This document shows, in pieces, positions 5,812-62,666 of a DNA stretch of 64,000 nt. Where the stretch lies: NCBI GenBank assembly GCA_964626055.1, contig CAZVDF010000005.1, positions 6,057-70,056 on the forward strand, written 5' to 3'. The notes under the pieces were generated by a model. It made no database searches and was not told the DNA's origin. It saw only the letters and a list, made by a program, of their open reading frames with translations. The DNA is from an uncultured Leptospirales bacterium. Lineage in GTDB: Bacteria; Spirochaetota; UBA4802; JAFGDQ01. The position numbers were made by a program, and so were the translations under genes. Each line of letters opens with the position of its first letter. Position 1 is the stretch's first letter.

Positions 5812-7623
5812 ATGAATAAAGGAATGCTTTATAAGGGAATATTTATTTTAATAATAATAATTTTCGCGGTCATATTGGTTTTGCCGAGTGTCGGCAGTAA
5901 AAAATTGGAGATAATTCTTTCAGATGATGCCGCTTCACAGGCGACTCAGGAAATTCTGAACCGTTTTTCCGCGGACAAATACGATATTGTTAGATCATCC
6001 GGTAAAATTACAATAGAAGCGTCCGGTCTGAAGATTACGGATGCGGTTATGAACGAAGTGAAGACATTTAAAGGCGTAAAAGACGTAAAAATCCTTCCGC
6101 ACTGGGCTGAAAAGGCCGTCCTCGCGAAAAAAATCACATTCGGACTTGACCTGCAGGGCGGGATGGACCTTGTAATGATGGCCAACTTTGAAAAGATCAA
6201 AAAGCAGTACACCCATGAAAGAGATCAACTGCTTGAAAAGAAGAAATCCCTTGAGGCTAGTTTAACCGAAAAGGACAAAATCGATAAAGAAGCGGTTAAA
6301 AAGGAAATAAAAGAAACTGATTATTCTTTAAAAGATATTAATGACAACAGGCTGGACGAAAAAGGAGAATTAAGGGACCATTTCAAGGATGAGATCACCA
6401 AGCAGGCGCTTGAAATGCTTCGCAACAGGGTTGATAAATTCGGCGTAGCGGAGCCTTCGATTCTTCAAAGAGGAAGCGAGCAGATTGAAATACAGCTCCC
6501 CGGAGTAAAGGATCCTGCAGCCGTTAAAAATCTTATTGGAACTACCGGTGCCGTGCAGTACAGGCTTGTCGATGACGCGTTTACTGCTAAGACCGCGGGC
6601 TGGCTTGCGGCGAATTATAAAGAAAAGAATCTGCCGGAAACAGCAGACGCCCAGGATGTCTTATTGTCACAAATTTCAAAGGGGATCAATCTTCCGAAAA
6701 ATCTTGAGCTAATATTTCTGTATAATAGAAATGAAAAAACCAAAAAGATCTTTCCTGCCGATATAATGGCGCTTAACAGGACAGTCGCGTTATCGGGCAA
6801 TGATATTAATAAGGCGTATGTGGGTCACGATGAATATGGGGCATTCATTGTGCAGTTTACAACCACAACGGAAGGAGCTTCCAAGTTCGCGAAAGTCACG
6901 GCGTCGGAAAACAAAGGCAAAAGACTTGCCATTATTATTGATAACAAGATCCGGAGCGCTCCGAGAATAAACGATCCTATTGTAACCGGCAGTGCGCAGA
7001 TAACCGGCGATTTTACGGCAGATGAAGTTAACGCCCTTGCCAGGATCATCCAGGAAGGAGCCCTGCCGGTTGACCTGACCATAGTTCAGGAAACGACGGT
7101 TGGCCCCACTCTCGGGCAGGATTCAATCGAAGCGGGAATATGGGCTGTTATTGTCGGATTGTGTGCAATAATGATATTTATGCTTTTTTACTACAAGACT
7201 TCCGGCTTAATAGCGAATCTCGGCCTGGTATTGAATACAATATTTACCCTTGCTTTACTGTCATGGCTGGGATTCACGCTTTCCTTGCCCGGTATTGCCG
7301 GCCTTTTGCTTAACGTCGGCATGGCTGTAGACTCCAATGTCATCATTTACGAAAGAATGAAAGAGGAAGTCCAGTTCGGCAAGTCGGTAAAAATGGTCAT
7401 CAGTACCGGCTTTGCAAGGGCATTCTGGGCGATTTTCGATGCCAATCTCACTACTCTTATAGCTGCATTTGTTCTTTTTCAGTACGGTTCCGGGCCTATT
7501 AAGGGTTTCGCGGTAACACTCGCTGTAGGGGTTGTTTCGACAATGTTTGTCGCTCTATTTATCACAAAGTATGTGTATGAAGTCATCGGTTCCAAAAAAG
7601 ATATTAAAAAGCTAAGCATATAA
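5812..7623 (+). CDS. secD: Protein translocase subunit SecD
   Basis: 603 aa with a large periplasmic domain and a C-terminal six-TM bundle of SecD type. secF follows immediately. Confidence 0.9.
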   Translation: MNKGMLYKGIFILIIIIFAVILVLPSVGSKKLEIILSDDAASQATQEILNRFSADKYDIVRSSGKITIEASGLKITDAVMNEVKTFKGVKDVKILPHWAEKAVLAKKITFGLDLQGGMDLVMMANFEKIKKQYTHERDQLLEKKKSLEASLTEKDKIDKEAVKKEIKETDYSLKDINDNRLDEKGELRDHFKDEITKQALEMLRNRVDKFGVAEPSILQRGSEQIEIQLPGVKDPAAVKNLIGTTGAVQYRLVDDAFTAKTAGWLAANYKEKNLPETADAQDVLLSQISKGINLPKNLELIFLYNRNEKTKKIFPADIMALNRTVALSGNDINKAYVGHDEYGAFIVQFTTTTEGASKFAKVTASENKGKRLAIIIDNKIRSAPRINDPIVTGSAQITGDFTADEVNALARIIQEGALPVDLTIVQETTVGPTLGQDSIEAGIWAVIVGLCAIMIFMLFYYKTSGLIANLGLVLNTIFTLALLSWLGFTLSLPGIAGLLLNVGMAVDSNVIIYERMKEEVQFGKSVKMVISTGFARAFWAIFDANLTTLIAAFVLFQYGSGPIKGFAVTLAVGVVSTMFVALFITKYVYEVIGSKKDIKKLSI

Positions 7624-20545: not shown

Positions 20546-21940
20546 ATGAAAAAGAACAGTTCGAAAATATTAAATAAAAGGCTTCAAATACCTCTTCTTG
20601 TCAGTAAGGAGATTAAAGAAATAGTTAATAAATTAACTGACAAAGGATATGAATGCTATCTTGTGGGCGGGTCGGTACGGGATCTTGTTCTCGGGCATGA
20701 AGTTCTCGATTATGATTTCGCAACCAATGCCCTCCCTGAAGATGTAATTAGGATTTTCCGCAGAACTGTGCCCACGGGTATCAAACACGGCACTGTAACT
20801 GTTCTGATGAAAAACAGGCAGTATGAAGTCACGACATACAGGGCGGACGGCAAATACATCGACGGCCGGAGACCCGAGAGCGTTTCGTTCTCGGAAACAC
20901 TGGAACAGGATGTCAGGAGGCGCGACTTTACTATAAACGGCCTTGCCTATGATATTGCAAATGAAAATGTAATAGATTATGTCAACGGGCTTGATGATAT
21001 CGATAAAAGGATCATAAGAACTATAGGCGATCCGCTTGAAAGATTCGGCGAGGACGGGCTCAGGCCTTACAGGGCCTGCAGATTCGCAGCCAGGCTTTAT
21101 TTCAGCATAGATCCGGATACTTTGGCTGCTATGTCTAAAACTCTGGATACTGCAAAGGCGGTATCCGCTGAAAGAGTACGAGACGAACTTTTAAAAATTA
21201 TGGATACCGAAAAGCCTTCAATAGGCCTTGAGTATATGCGGGAGACCGGTTTAATGAACCTTGCTCTGCCCGAGCTTCTTGAGGGATATAACGTAAGACA
21301 AAACAAATATCATATTTACGATATTTATTATCACAGTTTGTATTCCTGTGACGCCATACCGGATGCCGACCGCATCATCAAATTCGCCGCATTGCTACAT
21401 GATATAGGCAAGGCTGCGACAAGGAAGGAAGATGAGAACGGCGAAGGCACCTTTTATAATCATGAAGTGGTCGGCGCAAAGATTGCCAGGCGCATAATGA
21501 GAAGGCTTAAATTCTCCAATGAAGAGATCATTAAAGTAACAAACCTGATTATAAATCATATGTTTCACTATGTAAATGACTGGACCGACGGTGCGGTGAG
21601 AAGATTTATGAGGAAGGTCGGGCTCGAGAATCTGAATGACCTCTTAGTTCTTCGTCTCGCAGACAGAAGAGGAAACGGACAACGGGACGGTCTCCCGGCG
21701 CCGATCATACAGCTGCAGAAAAGAATCGATAAAGTAATAGAAGAAGACAGCGCGCTTACAGTCAGGGACCTTGATATCGACGGCCATGTAATTATGAGCG
21801 AATTTAATGTTGAACCCGGGCCGGTGATAGGGAAAATTCTTAACGAACTTCTGGAAATGGTTCTTGACGATCCGGAAACAAATAAAAGGGATATTTTGCT
21901 TTCCAGAGCGAGGGAGATATATAAAGGATTGTATCAATAG
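20546..21940 (+). CDS. cca: CCA-adding tRNA nucleotidyltransferase with HD domain
   Basis: N-terminal polymerase-beta motif LVGGSVRDLVLG, a central HD motif (LLHDIGK) and a C-terminal extension. Confidence 0.8.
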   Translation: MKKNSSKILNKRLQIPLLVSKEIKEIVNKLTDKGYECYLVGGSVRDLVLGHEVLDYDFATNALPEDVIRIFRRTVPTGIKHGTVTVLMKNRQYEVTTYRADGKYIDGRRPESVSFSETLEQDVRRRDFTINGLAYDIANENVIDYVNGLDDIDKRIIRTIGDPLERFGEDGLRPYRACRFAARLYFSIDPDTLAAMSKTLDTAKAVSAERVRDELLKIMDTEKPSIGLEYMRETGLMNLALPELLEGYNVRQNKYHIYDIYYHSLYSCDAIPDADRIIKFAALLHDIGKAATRKEDENGEGTFYNHEVVGAKIARRIMRRLKFSNEEIIKVTNLIINHMFHYVNDWTDGAVRRFMRKVGLENLNDLLVLRLADRRGNGQRDGLPAPIIQLQKRIDKVIEEDSALTVRDLDIDGHVIMSEFNVEPGPVIGKILNELLEMVLDDPETNKRDILLSRAREIYKGLYQ

Positions 21941-29624: not shown

Positions 29625-30983
29625 ATGTTCTCCAAATTAAAAGCAGTATTGGTAATTTTTATAATATCCTTTACAGCAGTAAACGGCAATGCCGCCGCGG
29701 ATGGTACAGACGTACCCGGCTATAAACAGAAAGGCAACTTCGAACTGGGAGGCGCTTTCGGCACCCCGTCCGGATTAAATTCCAGATACTGGTTCACCGA
29801 AAGGTTCGGTCTTGATGTTAACGCAGGCGTTTCTCTCGAAAAAAGACCTGTGTTTACAATGGATTTTTTGGTGGAAGACTATAAGCTTTACAGATCAAGC
29901 ACGTTCGAGGCCAGGTTTTTTTACGGCCTGGGCGGTATGGTTGTAAAAGAGAAACACGACTATGAAAATAATTTAAGGATTCCTTTAGGATTTTCTTTCC
30001 CGATGATGCAATATCCTATTAATTTTTCCGTTTATGTCGCACCCGCTCTCATCGTGCATCCGAAGTCGGAATTCGACATTAACTGGGGTATAGGCGTCAG
30101 ATATAATTTCTCAAGGGCTTCCGAGATCATGGAAAAGCAGCATCATCTTGAAAGGGAAGTGGAGAGTCTTAAATACGGTCTCGATACTACAAAGGGAAAA
30201 CTTGCCGAGACTGAAGGAGAGCTCAGTAAAACAAAAGGCAAAGTAGATGAGCTGAACCATAGACTCTGGAATTTGAAAACCAAACTTGATAAAACGGAAA
30301 GCGAGCTTGATACCACGAAGACAAAATTAGTTCTGACGACCAGACAGCTTGATGACACGAAGAACCAGCTTGATGAGGTTAAGACTGAACTGCGGAACAC
30401 GAAAAAAAATCTGGACGACAAGCAGCTTGAACTTACAAAAAAGCAGTCTGAACTGGATAACGCGAAGATAATTATTGAAAATGCGTATACCGGGAAAATG
30501 AAAGAAGATGAAGAAGAAAAAATATCCAGGAAGCAGAAAGAACTTGATGATCAGAAAGCGGAATTAAATAATCAAAAAAAAGCCTGGGAACAGATAAAAG
30601 TCAAGGAGGCTCAAAAGAGAGAGGATTTAAAGAAGAAGTGCCAGGACAGAGGAGGAATCATAGATGAGAACGGATACTGCACGTGCCCGGAAAATCAGGA
30701 ATGGGATCCGAAGACAGATAAATGCGTCTGCGTAAAAGGATATTACAGGAACGGACCGGCAGAGAGATGCAAGCCGTGTGAAATAATAAAAGAAAGCGGA
30801 GAATGCGCAGGCGGCTGCGCGGATTTCGAGGAAAAAGTACGGTTGAAAAAGGGTCCGCATAAATTCGTTTGCGTGAAGAGATGCCGGAAAGCCAATGAGG
30901 TGTGGTCCAGACATAAAGGAGCATGTGTCTGCAGGGACGGTTATTACAGGAACGATGCCGGCGAATGCATAAAGAGGCAGTAA
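29625..30983 (+). CDS. Outer-membrane beta-barrel / long coiled-coil / Cys-rich C-terminal domain protein
   Basis: Signal peptide. The ~160-aa N-terminal region alternates hydrophobic residues and ends in an aromatic YNF (OmpA/OmpW-like 8-strand barrel). A ~180-aa heptad-like repeat region follows (LDTTKGKL, LDKTESEL, LDDTKNQL ...). The C-terminus carries about 12 Cys in EGF-like spacing (CTCPENQEWDPKTDKCVCVKGYY ... CVCRDGYY). Confidence 0.5.
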   Translation: MFSKLKAVLVIFIISFTAVNGNAAADGTDVPGYKQKGNFELGGAFGTPSGLNSRYWFTERFGLDVNAGVSLEKRPVFTMDFLVEDYKLYRSSTFEARFFYGLGGMVVKEKHDYENNLRIPLGFSFPMMQYPINFSVYVAPALIVHPKSEFDINWGIGVRYNFSRASEIMEKQHHLEREVESLKYGLDTTKGKLAETEGELSKTKGKVDELNHRLWNLKTKLDKTESELDTTKTKLVLTTRQLDDTKNQLDEVKTELRNTKKNLDDKQLELTKKQSELDNAKIIIENAYTGKMKEDEEEKISRKQKELDDQKAELNNQKKAWEQIKVKEAQKREDLKKKCQDRGGIIDENGYCTCPENQEWDPKTDKCVCVKGYYRNGPAERCKPCEIIKESGECAGGCADFEEKVRLKKGPHKFVCVKRCRKANEVWSRHKGACVCRDGYYRNDAGECIKRQ

Positions 30984-31002: not shown

Positions 31003-31092
31003 GGAGATAATGATAGTATCCCTAATTTCCTGCGGAACTCGGCCTTTGGCCTCAGACAGTCCTCGGAAATTTGGGATACTATCATTATCTCC
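31003..31092. other. Perfect 20-bp inverted-repeat stem enclosing a conserved 42-nt core, copy 1 (candidate structured RNA or REP-like element)
   Basis: ggagataatgatagtatccc (31003-31022) is the exact reverse complement of 31073-31092. The core ttcctgcggaactcggcct-ttg-gcctcagacagtcctcggaa (31027-31068) recurs at 60041-60082. Confidence 0.5.
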
Positions 31093-31154
31093 AATGGTAT
31101 TTATAAATTAATCTAAAGACAAGAAATTCAATTTTTTTATCCGGAGGAATAAAA

Positions 31155-60015: not shown

Positions 60016-60095
60016 GGGATATATCATAAATCAATTTAAATTCCTGCGGAACTCGGCCTAGAGCCTCAGACAGTCCTCGGAACTATGATATGTCC
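60016..60095. other. Conserved 42-nt core, copy 2, inside an imperfect inverted repeat
   Basis: The core ttcctgcggaactcggcct-aga-gcctcagacagtcctcggaa (60041-60082) matches copy 1 in 39 of 42 positions, the three differences being the central trinucleotide. It is flanked by gggatatatcata / tatgatatgtcc. Confidence 0.45.
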
Positions 60096-62073: not shown

Positions 62074-62364
62074 ATGATAGAGATCAGACAAACAGAAACA
62101 TATAAGAAATGGTTCTCTTCCTTAAGAGACAGAAATGCAAAAATTCGGATTGATATTAGAATTAGAAGACTTTCTCTGGGTAATTATGGAAACGCAAAGC
62201 CTGTAGGAGCTGGAATATCGGAATTAAGAATTAATTACGGCCCGGGTTATAGAATATATTATATAAGAACGGATAATGAAATAATAATTCTGCTGGCAGG
62301 CGGCGATAAATCGACCCAATCAAGGGATATAAAGAAAGCGAAAGAGATTAGAGGTGTGATATGA
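62074..62364 (+). CDS. Type II toxin, RelE/ParE superfamily (HigB-like, COG3657 addiction-module killer)
   Basis: 96 aa. Pattern FSSLRDRNAKIRIDIRIRRLSLGNYGNAKPVGAGISELRINYGPGYRIYY. It overlaps the downstream gene by 4 nt. Confidence 0.7.
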   Translation: MIEIRQTETYKKWFSSLRDRNAKIRIDIRIRRLSLGNYGNAKPVGAGISELRINYGPGYRIYYIRTDNEIIILLAGGDKSTQSRDIKKAKEIRGVI

Positions 62365-62666
62365 AAAAAGAAAAAATAAGCATATGGGATGCTGCAGAGC
62401 ACCTTGAAACTGAAAAAGATATGGCCGCATATTTAGAAGCAGCATTGGAAGAAAATGACCCTTCACTAATTGCAGCTGCGTTGGGTGACATCGCGAGGGC
62501 TAAAGGAATGTCACGAATATCGAAGCGGACAGGACTTGGCAGGGAAAGCCTGTACAAAGCATTATCACCGGAGGGAAATCCTGAATTTTCTACAATACTA
62601 AAAGTTGTCAATGCTTTGGGATTAAAATTTCAGGCTGTTCCTGGAAAAATTAAATCTGCGGTTTAA
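62361..62666 (+). CDS. Cognate antitoxin (HigA-like / COG3636 addiction-module antidote, HTH)
   Basis: 101 aa. WDAAEHLETEKDMAAYLEAALEE...IAAALGDIARAKGMSRISKRTGLGRESLYKAL is the HTH core of this antidote family. Confidence 0.7.
   Translation: MKKEKISIWDAAEHLETEKDMAAYLEAALEENDPSLIAAALGDIARAKGMSRISKRTGLGRESLYKALSPEGNPEFSTILKVVNALGLKFQAVPGKIKSAV

Follow-up and report, generated by a model that had tools for sequence, protein, structure and literature searches.

REPs are intergenic bacterial repeats that occur as inverted dimers of a preferred type and form G·T pairs on one strand (PMC3733652, PMC2817692, PMC6006769). They are thought to be moved by RAYT/TIRYT (TnpA-Y1) enzymes, which act on folded single strands (PMC3733652, PMC6006769). 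Bacterial dispersed repeats, REPs and MITEs among them, are as a rule lineage-specific, and in a census of 1.4 million prokaryotic MITEs 97.4% were genus-specific (PMC11602168). In this work, a 64,000-nt stretch of DNA from an uncultured Leptospirales bacterium (the window) was found to hold two solo copies of a widespread, previously uncatalogued structured intergenic repeat. An earlier note on this DNA had offered a REP-like element as one alternative, and this is the closest known analogue of the repeat, although its cross-phylum core departs from the rule of lineage specificity.

Two copies in the window and the fold of the core

The 42-nt core occurs twice in the window, and 39 of the 42 bases are identical; the copies differ solely at the three central bases (TTG vs AGA). 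This description, given in the earlier note, was borne out by a scan with TTCCTGCGGAACTCGGCCTNNNGCCTCAGACAGTCCTCGGAA that tolerated up to 3 mismatches: exactly 2 matches were obtained, both on the plus strand and with 0 mismatches outside NNN, and none appeared in 100 dinucleotide-preserving shuffles. The covariance model R1, built from 124 distinct copies, also reported only these two copies in the window, and a search with its filters off gave no degenerate partner copies near either locus. The features are listed below with the strand that folds.

31027..31068, minus strand: core copy 1, exact pattern match (R1 57.9 bits, E = 3.8e-15 over 31021-31074); the folding strand reads UUCC GA GGAC UGUCUGA GGCC-AAA-GGCC GA GUUCC GCA GGAA
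31034-31038 with 31059-31062, minus strand: helix P2 of copy 1
31041-31044 with 31048-31051, minus strand: helix P3 of copy 1, loop 31045-31047
31003..31026, minus strand: outer stem P1 of copy 1, 3' arm on the folding strand, from sequence and fold; the perfect 20 bp are 31003-31022, and A24-T26 are part of the 7-bp inner extension
31069..31092, minus strand: outer stem P1 of copy 1, 5' arm on the folding strand, from sequence and fold (perfect arm 31073-31092)
60041..60082, minus strand: core copy 2, exact pattern match (R1 55.3 bits, E = 2.4e-14 over 60035-60088); P3 is reduced to GGC/GCC, and its loop has 5 nt
60016..60040, minus strand: P1 arm of copy 2, GGGATATATCATAAATCAATTTAAA, homologous to the arm of the copy L006
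60083..60095, minus strand: opposite P1 arm of copy 2, shorter than the L006-type arm by a deletion of 11 nt

The perfect 20-bp inverted repeat around the core at locus 1 stands as first described, and its pairing runs 7 further pairs inward (31024-31030 with 31065-31071). The core is not the plain loop for which it had been taken; it is itself an irregular hairpin of three helices (P1, P2 and P3). The whole 90-nt hairpin reaches -49.6 kcal/mol on the plus strand (z = -10.3) and -51.3 kcal/mol on the minus strand, with z about -10 on either, and the 42-mer folded alone is thermodynamically ordinary (z from -0.3 to +1.0, no better than shuffles). At locus 2 the imperfect inverted repeat of about 12 bp noted before is present at 60017-60028 / 60084-60095, and P1 pairs over only this length because of the 11-nt deletion in the opposite arm. 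The flanking stems had been thought to lack conservation, which has to be corrected, as the 5' arm of locus 2 agrees at 24 of 29 positions with an arm found in a copy from an unrelated contig of Spirochaetes (L006) and the changes in the 3' arm compensate. Therefore, P1 travels with the core between unrelated loci. The 33-codon ORF at 31010-31111 that spans locus 1 is real, as is its lack of conservation at locus 2; it is absent from every other copy as well, and a coding reading was rejected because of this. A weak R1 match on the plus strand at 21040-21098 (10.8 bits, E = 0.65) keeps GGCGAGGAC…CGCAGCC and loses the junctions, and is probably due to chance.

On the folding strand the consensus runs, 5' to 3', through a variable P1a of 6-40 bp, a 5' bulge of 3-6 nt, P1b of 3 bp, C, GA, GGAC, UGUYYGA, P3 of 3-6 bp with its loop, GA, GUUCC, GCA and G to the returning strands P1b' and P1a'. 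P3 is usually capped by a GNA triloop, and the GA/GA positions that flank it are invariant. The covariance model proposed in the earlier note as a check did reveal structural covariation: among the 124 distinct copies, 93.9% of cells in the named structure are paired vs 75.9% in column shuffles and 29-42% with the partners slid, and 213 cells are changed on both sides of a pair. P1b and P3 covary strongly, P3 having 77 distinct sequences. In P2, prescribed by the search pattern, at least 8 of the extra copies have G-C changed to C-G, and one has U·G.

The strand under selection to fold is the minus strand of the window, the complement of the one first written. Thus the idea of a conserved core in a family of structured elements survives and its strand is reversed. 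The P3 loops on the folding strand are GCA (20), GAA (19) and GUA (6) in 45 of 77 cases, closed by C-G; the tetraloops GAAA, GUAA and UUCG (GNRA and UUCG types) are found on the same strand, far outnumbered by triloops. Mismatches in the modelled pairs fall on 64 G·A/A·G cells vs 0 C·U, with tandem G·A in 15 P3 variants, and P1 holds 63 G·T wobbles on this strand vs 16 A·C, which are wobbles on the other. Furthermore, the folding strand is the more stable one in 153 of 162 copies with RNA parameters (mean -6.6 kcal/mol) and in 154 of 162 with DNA parameters. C(GNA)G triloops reportedly form exceptionally stable DNA mini-hairpins, a finding ascribed to Hirao in 1994 and Yoshizawa in 1997.

Both copies in the window lie in ordinary contexts, one between a Cys-rich protein and a MotA/ExbB-like protein and the other between a HAD hydrolase and an ABC-F ATPase, and the folding strand is antisense to all four flanking genes. 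Neither promoter nor terminator signals rose above shuffles at either locus, so an independent small-RNA gene in the window, which the first reading had considered, found no support; with 0 terminator-like sites at either locus, the core hairpin was also rejected as an intrinsic (Rho-independent) terminator. The Cys-rich product (29625-30983, 452 aa) consists of repeated modules of the form C..GYYRN....C, belongs to no Pfam family and gives weak PADLOC matches of coiled-coil type. Downstream of the ABC-F gene, at 62074-62666, lies a toxin-antitoxin-like pair, a Gp49/HigB-like protein of 96 aa followed by an HI1420-type antidote of 101 aa, whose genes overlap by 4 nt. A defence function for the neighbouring genes of the window was not supported.

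Distribution, paired units and their cargo

One genome per species, 185,579 species genomes altogether, was scanned with CTGCGGAACTC-N9-16-TCAGACAGTCC, leaving the inner hairpin free. The possibility that only these two copies exist, which the earlier note had named as damaging, is clearly not the case, as at least 120 genome stretches carry the core. Among the matches listed, 97 are, by record title, from Beta-, Gamma- or unclassified Pseudomonadota, 10 from Actinomycetota (mostly Coriobacteriia), 4 from CPR, 4 from Bacillota and 1 from Spirochaetota, with single matches in Planctomycetota, Verrucomicrobiota, Thermodesulfobacteriota and Alphaproteobacteria. The labels Akkermansia and Phycisphaeraceae look like binning contamination because the flanks are typical of another phylum. 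Carriers in Pseudomonadota include Gallionellaceae, Rhodocyclaceae, Methylophilaceae, Sulfuricella, Thauera, Litorivivens and Zhongshania. In the loci from the matches listed, R1 found 165 copies in 121 loci, including about 40 missed by the exact pattern, which differ from it at 1-3 core positions only. The 24-nt core is nearly invariant across phyla, in part by construction because the genome scan demanded an exact core, and only the two pyrimidines of UGUYYGA commonly vary. That it stays nearly constant in CPR, Spirochaetes, Coriobacteriia and Betaproteobacteria implies a partner or function that is itself conserved and transferable and has not been described.

In a metagenome scan, the TTCC…GGAA variant of the window was found in one contig only (JGI, L123), where two same-strand copies lie 1.2 kb apart (L123:5458-5516 and 6699-6769); in one of them P1 is perfect over 22 bp, and P3, read on the folding strand, combines tandem G·A with a C(UUCG)G loop. 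Plasmid, phage and E. coli records gave no match to the core, and only an outer AT-rich hairpin module, described below, was matched there, in Ilyobacter and Pasteurella. Among viral contigs the strict pattern had 0 matches and a relaxed one 4, all four of which resemble proteobacterial prophage or host DNA. No Rfam 15 family matched the element at gathering thresholds in the window or in 18 loci covering it, and the window as a whole (1-64000) has no Rfam match at that threshold and no tRNA, rRNA or riboswitch. At E <= 10, generic long-hairpin (miRNA-type) matches were obtained at locus 1 only and none at locus 2. Hammerhead, twister, pistol, hatchet, HDV-like, uup and HEARO stayed below the gathering threshold, and the first four were rejected for mismatches in the core as well. 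Neither 14-mer of the core was found in the literature searched, where keyword searching likewise gave nothing specific, and likenesses to Tn3 inverted repeats, Neisseria DUS, RNase P, the sarcin-ricin loop and the type I-E CRISPR repeat were coincidences of 6-9 nt. Other RNAs near copies elsewhere, unrelated to the element, are TwoAYGGAY (L006:2997-3132), lysM-TM7 (L068:4523-4629) and a ZTP riboswitch (L093:2955-3041).

Gene calls based on codon-position GC place about 95% of copies in intergenic DNA. Of the single copies, 26 lie between convergent genes, 6 between divergent genes and 40 between co-directional ones, 15 of the latter being sense and 25 antisense; on the point that the earlier note had proposed to check, copies do not always sit 3' of genes in one orientation. 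Neither this bias relative to transcription nor that relative to local GC skew, taken as the replication strand (40 vs 27), is significant. No recurrent gene family was found near the copies, since clustering of 1261 ORFs within 1.5 kb returned only spurious ORFs reading through the repeat, and no association with any gene class was found. In the 8-kb stretches around copies, about 1 Mb of loci, and in the window, 0 ORFs had an HUH/Y1 motif, and no RAYT/TIRYT gene was seen beside any copy in these stretches.

The unit is 54-90 nt long in the window and about 130-250 nt in proteobacteria. In Beta- and Gammaproteobacteria a domain of about 130 nt forms a three-way junction, with the core hairpin as one of its arms, and is closed by a long-range helix that is followed by UCGCCUUCUUUUGG and by further hairpins with T-rich tails. 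The order downstream on the folding strand is a T-rich tract, an AT-rich perfect hairpin and a GC hairpin. A GAGTAGCGCAGG box is confined to proteobacterial flanks, away from the core hairpin. Across genera, the unit sequence is 84.6% identical vs 78.6% for coding DNA. The AT-rich perfect hairpin has a consensus of about GTNACTTTTCTTTG-loop-CAAAGAAAAGTNAC next to CAAAGAAAAGGCGACCCC and is common to Rhodocyclaceae, Fusobacteriota and Pasteurellaceae (L037:1611-1666 and 2054-2109; L122:1500-1550 in Ilyobacter pILYOP01, which has it in 6 places). A palindromic element of about 420 bp in Pasteurella multocida, located between dapF and a DUF484 gene, has this module at both ends (L124:826-880 and 1195-1245); the element has another inner hairpin and lacks the core. 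The module is likewise coreless in Ilyobacter, and it is absent from Rfam and E. coli. A further short repeat, ACCGTTCGTCCTGAGCCTGTCGAAGGATGGGCGAAGCCCGC, stands just outside the units in L027 (1440-1500, where it is duplicated), L108 and L099 (alignment A6, columns 60-135), and its translation, …SLSNHERPFDRLRANG…, falls inside called ORFs.

Neighbouring copies are arranged with a fixed polarity: 39 pairs are '-+', with their 5' ends facing each other and their 3' ends outward, vs 4 that are '+-', and only 4 are on the same strand. By comparing the spacings, '-+' and '+-' pairs number 26 and 3 below 700 nt, 10 and 0 at 700-1500 nt, and 3 and 1 at 1.5-4 kb. The short pairs are palindromic elements of 450-550 bp. 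Such doublets are kept at the orthologous sites L037, L046 and L076 in species that have diverged by about 20%, for which stable inheritance or a host function is a better fit than active transposition, and the centre of L046 is inverted relative to L037 and L076. No direct repeat that could count as a target-site duplication was recognised at the boundaries.

Pairs 0.9-3.5 kb apart enclose one or two genes, and in 12 of 14 segments the enclosed DNA is 7-21 GC points lower than the rest of the locus. The best matches of the cargo are given below; several further products are uncharacterised.

L016: PDC-S67 (2e-56)
L125: PDC-S31 (6e-48)
L040: PDC-S14 (5e-102)
L027: PDC-S33 / RelA_SpoT (3e-104)
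L074: BstA / KilA-N
L022: McrBC
L087: Mrr_N
L093: two ChrA
L015: an IS with its own inverted repeats

The enclosed cargo is foreign and often consists of candidate anti-phage defence genes; the evidence on pairs and cargo comes almost entirely from Gallionellaceae and their relatives, a lineage other than that of the window. Both flanks and both units are common to L027, L108 and L099, which have unrelated inner segments, and the same is true of L074 vs L087. L086 has a solo unit; in L019, a further unit with cargo is inserted exactly between the inner end of the corresponding unit and a host gene. In L018 a low-GC island adjoins a solo unit. The presence of different cargo at one locus in related species points to replacement and not to independent insertion. 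The genes between pairs were rejected as a transposase of the repeat because the cargo is diverse and the sole transposase, in L015, belongs to an IS with unrelated inverted repeats of its own. This IS4/IS5-type element (L015:1940-3445; DDE_Tnp_1, 444 aa, 47-nt inverted repeats) occupies the exact centre of the unit pair, and the centres of pairs may be insertion targets.

Possible roles of the repeat

We hypothesize, with a probability of about 0.42, that the family is REP/BIME- or MITE-like and that the core is the hairpin through which a non-autonomous module, of repeat or recombination type, is recognised in single-stranded form. The core is read in this way because the behaviour of the family is REP/BIME- or MITE-like. 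A trans-acting protein would then recognise the invariant junction nucleotides; it would most likely be a strand-specific enzyme acting on nucleic acids, similar to those by which REPs or transposon ends are propagated. Such a factor would act on the folded single strand and spread or recombine the units, and small cassettes acquired by horizontal transfer could have the units as their portable 'bookends'. The window copies, beside ordinary genes and with no partner copy detected, would be solo ends or relics. Counting against this hypothesis, no HUH/Y1 ORF and no recurrent gene family was found in the stretches around the copies, no target-site duplication was seen, and doublets are kept at orthologous sites.

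The main rival, possible if doubtful, is that the repeat acts at the RNA level, as a structured 3'-end, terminator or insulator transcribed outward from its 5' side, where the cargo lies in pairs. An element of this type would shield neighbours from read-through of foreign genes and stabilise the transcript, and a conserved protein for RNA binding or processing would recognise its junctions, which are conserved as well and have two tandem G·A motifs and a k-turn-like kink. The strand asymmetry is of the sort usual for RNA, in the wobbles of P1 as in the UUCG and GNRA loops. A T-rich tract lies 40-80 nt downstream in 76 of 148 copies on the folding strand vs 27 of 148 on the other, so the larger proteobacterial unit, with its closing helix, UCGCCUUCUUUUGG and T-tailed hairpins, may include terminators, and a canonical GC hairpin with a U-run stands at the inner boundary on the folding strand. 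Moreover, since the 3' ends in '-+' pairs always point outward, transcription out of the centre reads the folding strand whichever way it runs. However, solo copies show no preference for sense behind genes, both window copies are antisense to both neighbours without a promoter- or terminator-like site above shuffles, and AT-rich lineages have no T-tract. The dominance of C(GNA)G triloops over the tetraloops that usually cap selected RNA helices also speaks against this role, and perfect stems of 20-27 bp would be substrates of RNase III. The repeat-module and RNA-level readings are not mutually exclusive, as with REPs.

A bolder version of the repeat-module hypothesis, which we regard as rather unlikely, is a cross-phylum cassette system, integron-like but with inverted repeats, in which an enzyme would read the conserved, structured bookends single-stranded and the bookends would capture, insulate and exchange single foreign genes, largely for anti-phage defence, at fixed chromosomal sites. 

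That the units are portable homology arms, or a site-specific recombination site whose shared sequence lets cassettes be swapped after DNA uptake, with the hairpin being secondary, seems distinctly unlikely. It would account for the same units with different cargo at orthologous loci, for the solo unit and the pair with cargo as alternatives at one locus (L086 and L019), for the centre of L046 being inverted between its arms, and for units that are conserved between genera at least as well as coding DNA. The compensatory changes in P1, P2 and P3 and their strand-specific wobble bias are left unexplained by it, as are the solo hairpins of AT-rich genomes, that of the window among them, whose arms are specific to the lineage. 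In addition, a simple site-specific recombinase acting on inverted sites inverts the DNA between them and neither excises nor integrates it.

A trans-acting or catalytic small RNA, either a new ribozyme or a class of aptamer or protein sponge that is multi-copy by happenstance, is very improbable. Nearly invariant junctions between helices that covary across phyla are also found in ribozymes and aptamers, and the junction CUGA...GA is one that we take, from inspection of the sequence, to resemble hammerhead and k-turn motifs. Yet Rfam has no matching ribozyme or riboswitch family, even at E <= 10, the hammerhead core is broken by one extra nucleotide and by G in place of A14, there is no association with a gene class, the orientation is random relative to host genes, and inverted pairs around cargo would be unexpected. 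Chance similarity or decayed dispersed-repeat debris without structure or function, which the mere two copies in 64 kb and the ordinary fold of the 42-mer might have suggested, is already refuted by the shuffles (0/100), the at least 120 genome stretches, the covarying helices and the conservation at orthologous sites.

The fixed-polarity pairs around low-GC candidate defence genes, with cargo that differs at one locus in related species, suggest a simple searchable marker for small defence-gene cassettes and a possible new route of cassette exchange. Since the motif is short and sharply defined and has cultured carriers (Thauera, Dechloromonas, Azonexus, Sulfuricella and Litorivivens), the choice between RNA and single-stranded DNA, and the identity of the partner, are directly testable.

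Comparison with known systems

The likeness to a kink-turn (the 5' stem-loop of U4 snRNA, box C/D) consists of a C-stem GGAC/GUUCC, a bulge, and tandem G·A/A·G by a short capped helix. A kink-turn has tandem trans sugar-Hoogsteen G·A pairs after a 3-nt bulge, placed between one canonical and one non-canonical helix. The likeness is no more than a resemblance, and the bulge is 5 nt instead of 3, with a second G·A motif and a bulged U. With integron attC sites the repeat shares the folded single strand as the selected form and the association with single promoter-less or foreign genes, including defence genes. The attC site of aadA7 has short GC hairpins capped by a GAA-type triloop on the folding strand, as here. 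On the other hand, the repeat is without the R''/R' boxes of attC (RYYYAAC / GTTRRRY), its centre is conserved and its stem base variable where attC has the opposite, and its sites flank the cargo in inverted and not in direct orientation, with no integrase seen.

MITEs and cargo-carrying non-autonomous transposons, such as TIME-COMP and composite MITE structures, are similar in their long terminal inverted units, their short or gene-bearing centres, their foreign cargo and the lack of a transposase inside. The inverted arms are present here as well; they are about 150-250 bp long, highly structured and under strand-specific structural selection, which sets them apart. A MITE has, besides its terminal inverted repeats, a target-site duplication and derives from an identifiable IS; in the loci covered, no direct repeat and hence no target-site duplication was recognised at the boundaries, and no parent IS was found. 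Another difference is that the cargo at one locus differs between related species.

From REPs, REPINs and BIMEs the repeat differs in that the foot of the hairpin carries no GTAG/CGTC tag (GT[AG]G or CGTC), the feet of P1 being lineage-specific, and in that its conserved part is the inner irregular hairpin and not the stem. The unit is longer than the REP palindrome of 20-40 nt, its core is near-identical across phyla whereas REPs co-evolve with RAYT and are lineage-specific, and its pairs carry cargo genes. REPs have a cognate single-copy tnpA(REP)/RAYT gene with repeats on either side (REPtron), and in the 8-kb stretches around copies no RAYT/TIRYT gene was seen. Nevertheless, like these elements it is a high-copy (165 copies at 121 loci), extragenic (about 95% intergenic), imperfect palindrome that lies mostly between convergent or co-directional genes. 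It also shares with them the inverted dimers of preferred polarity, with tandem (head-to-tail) dimers being rare, the mosaic association with other repeat modules, the G·T stem pairs on one strand and the stable vertical inheritance.
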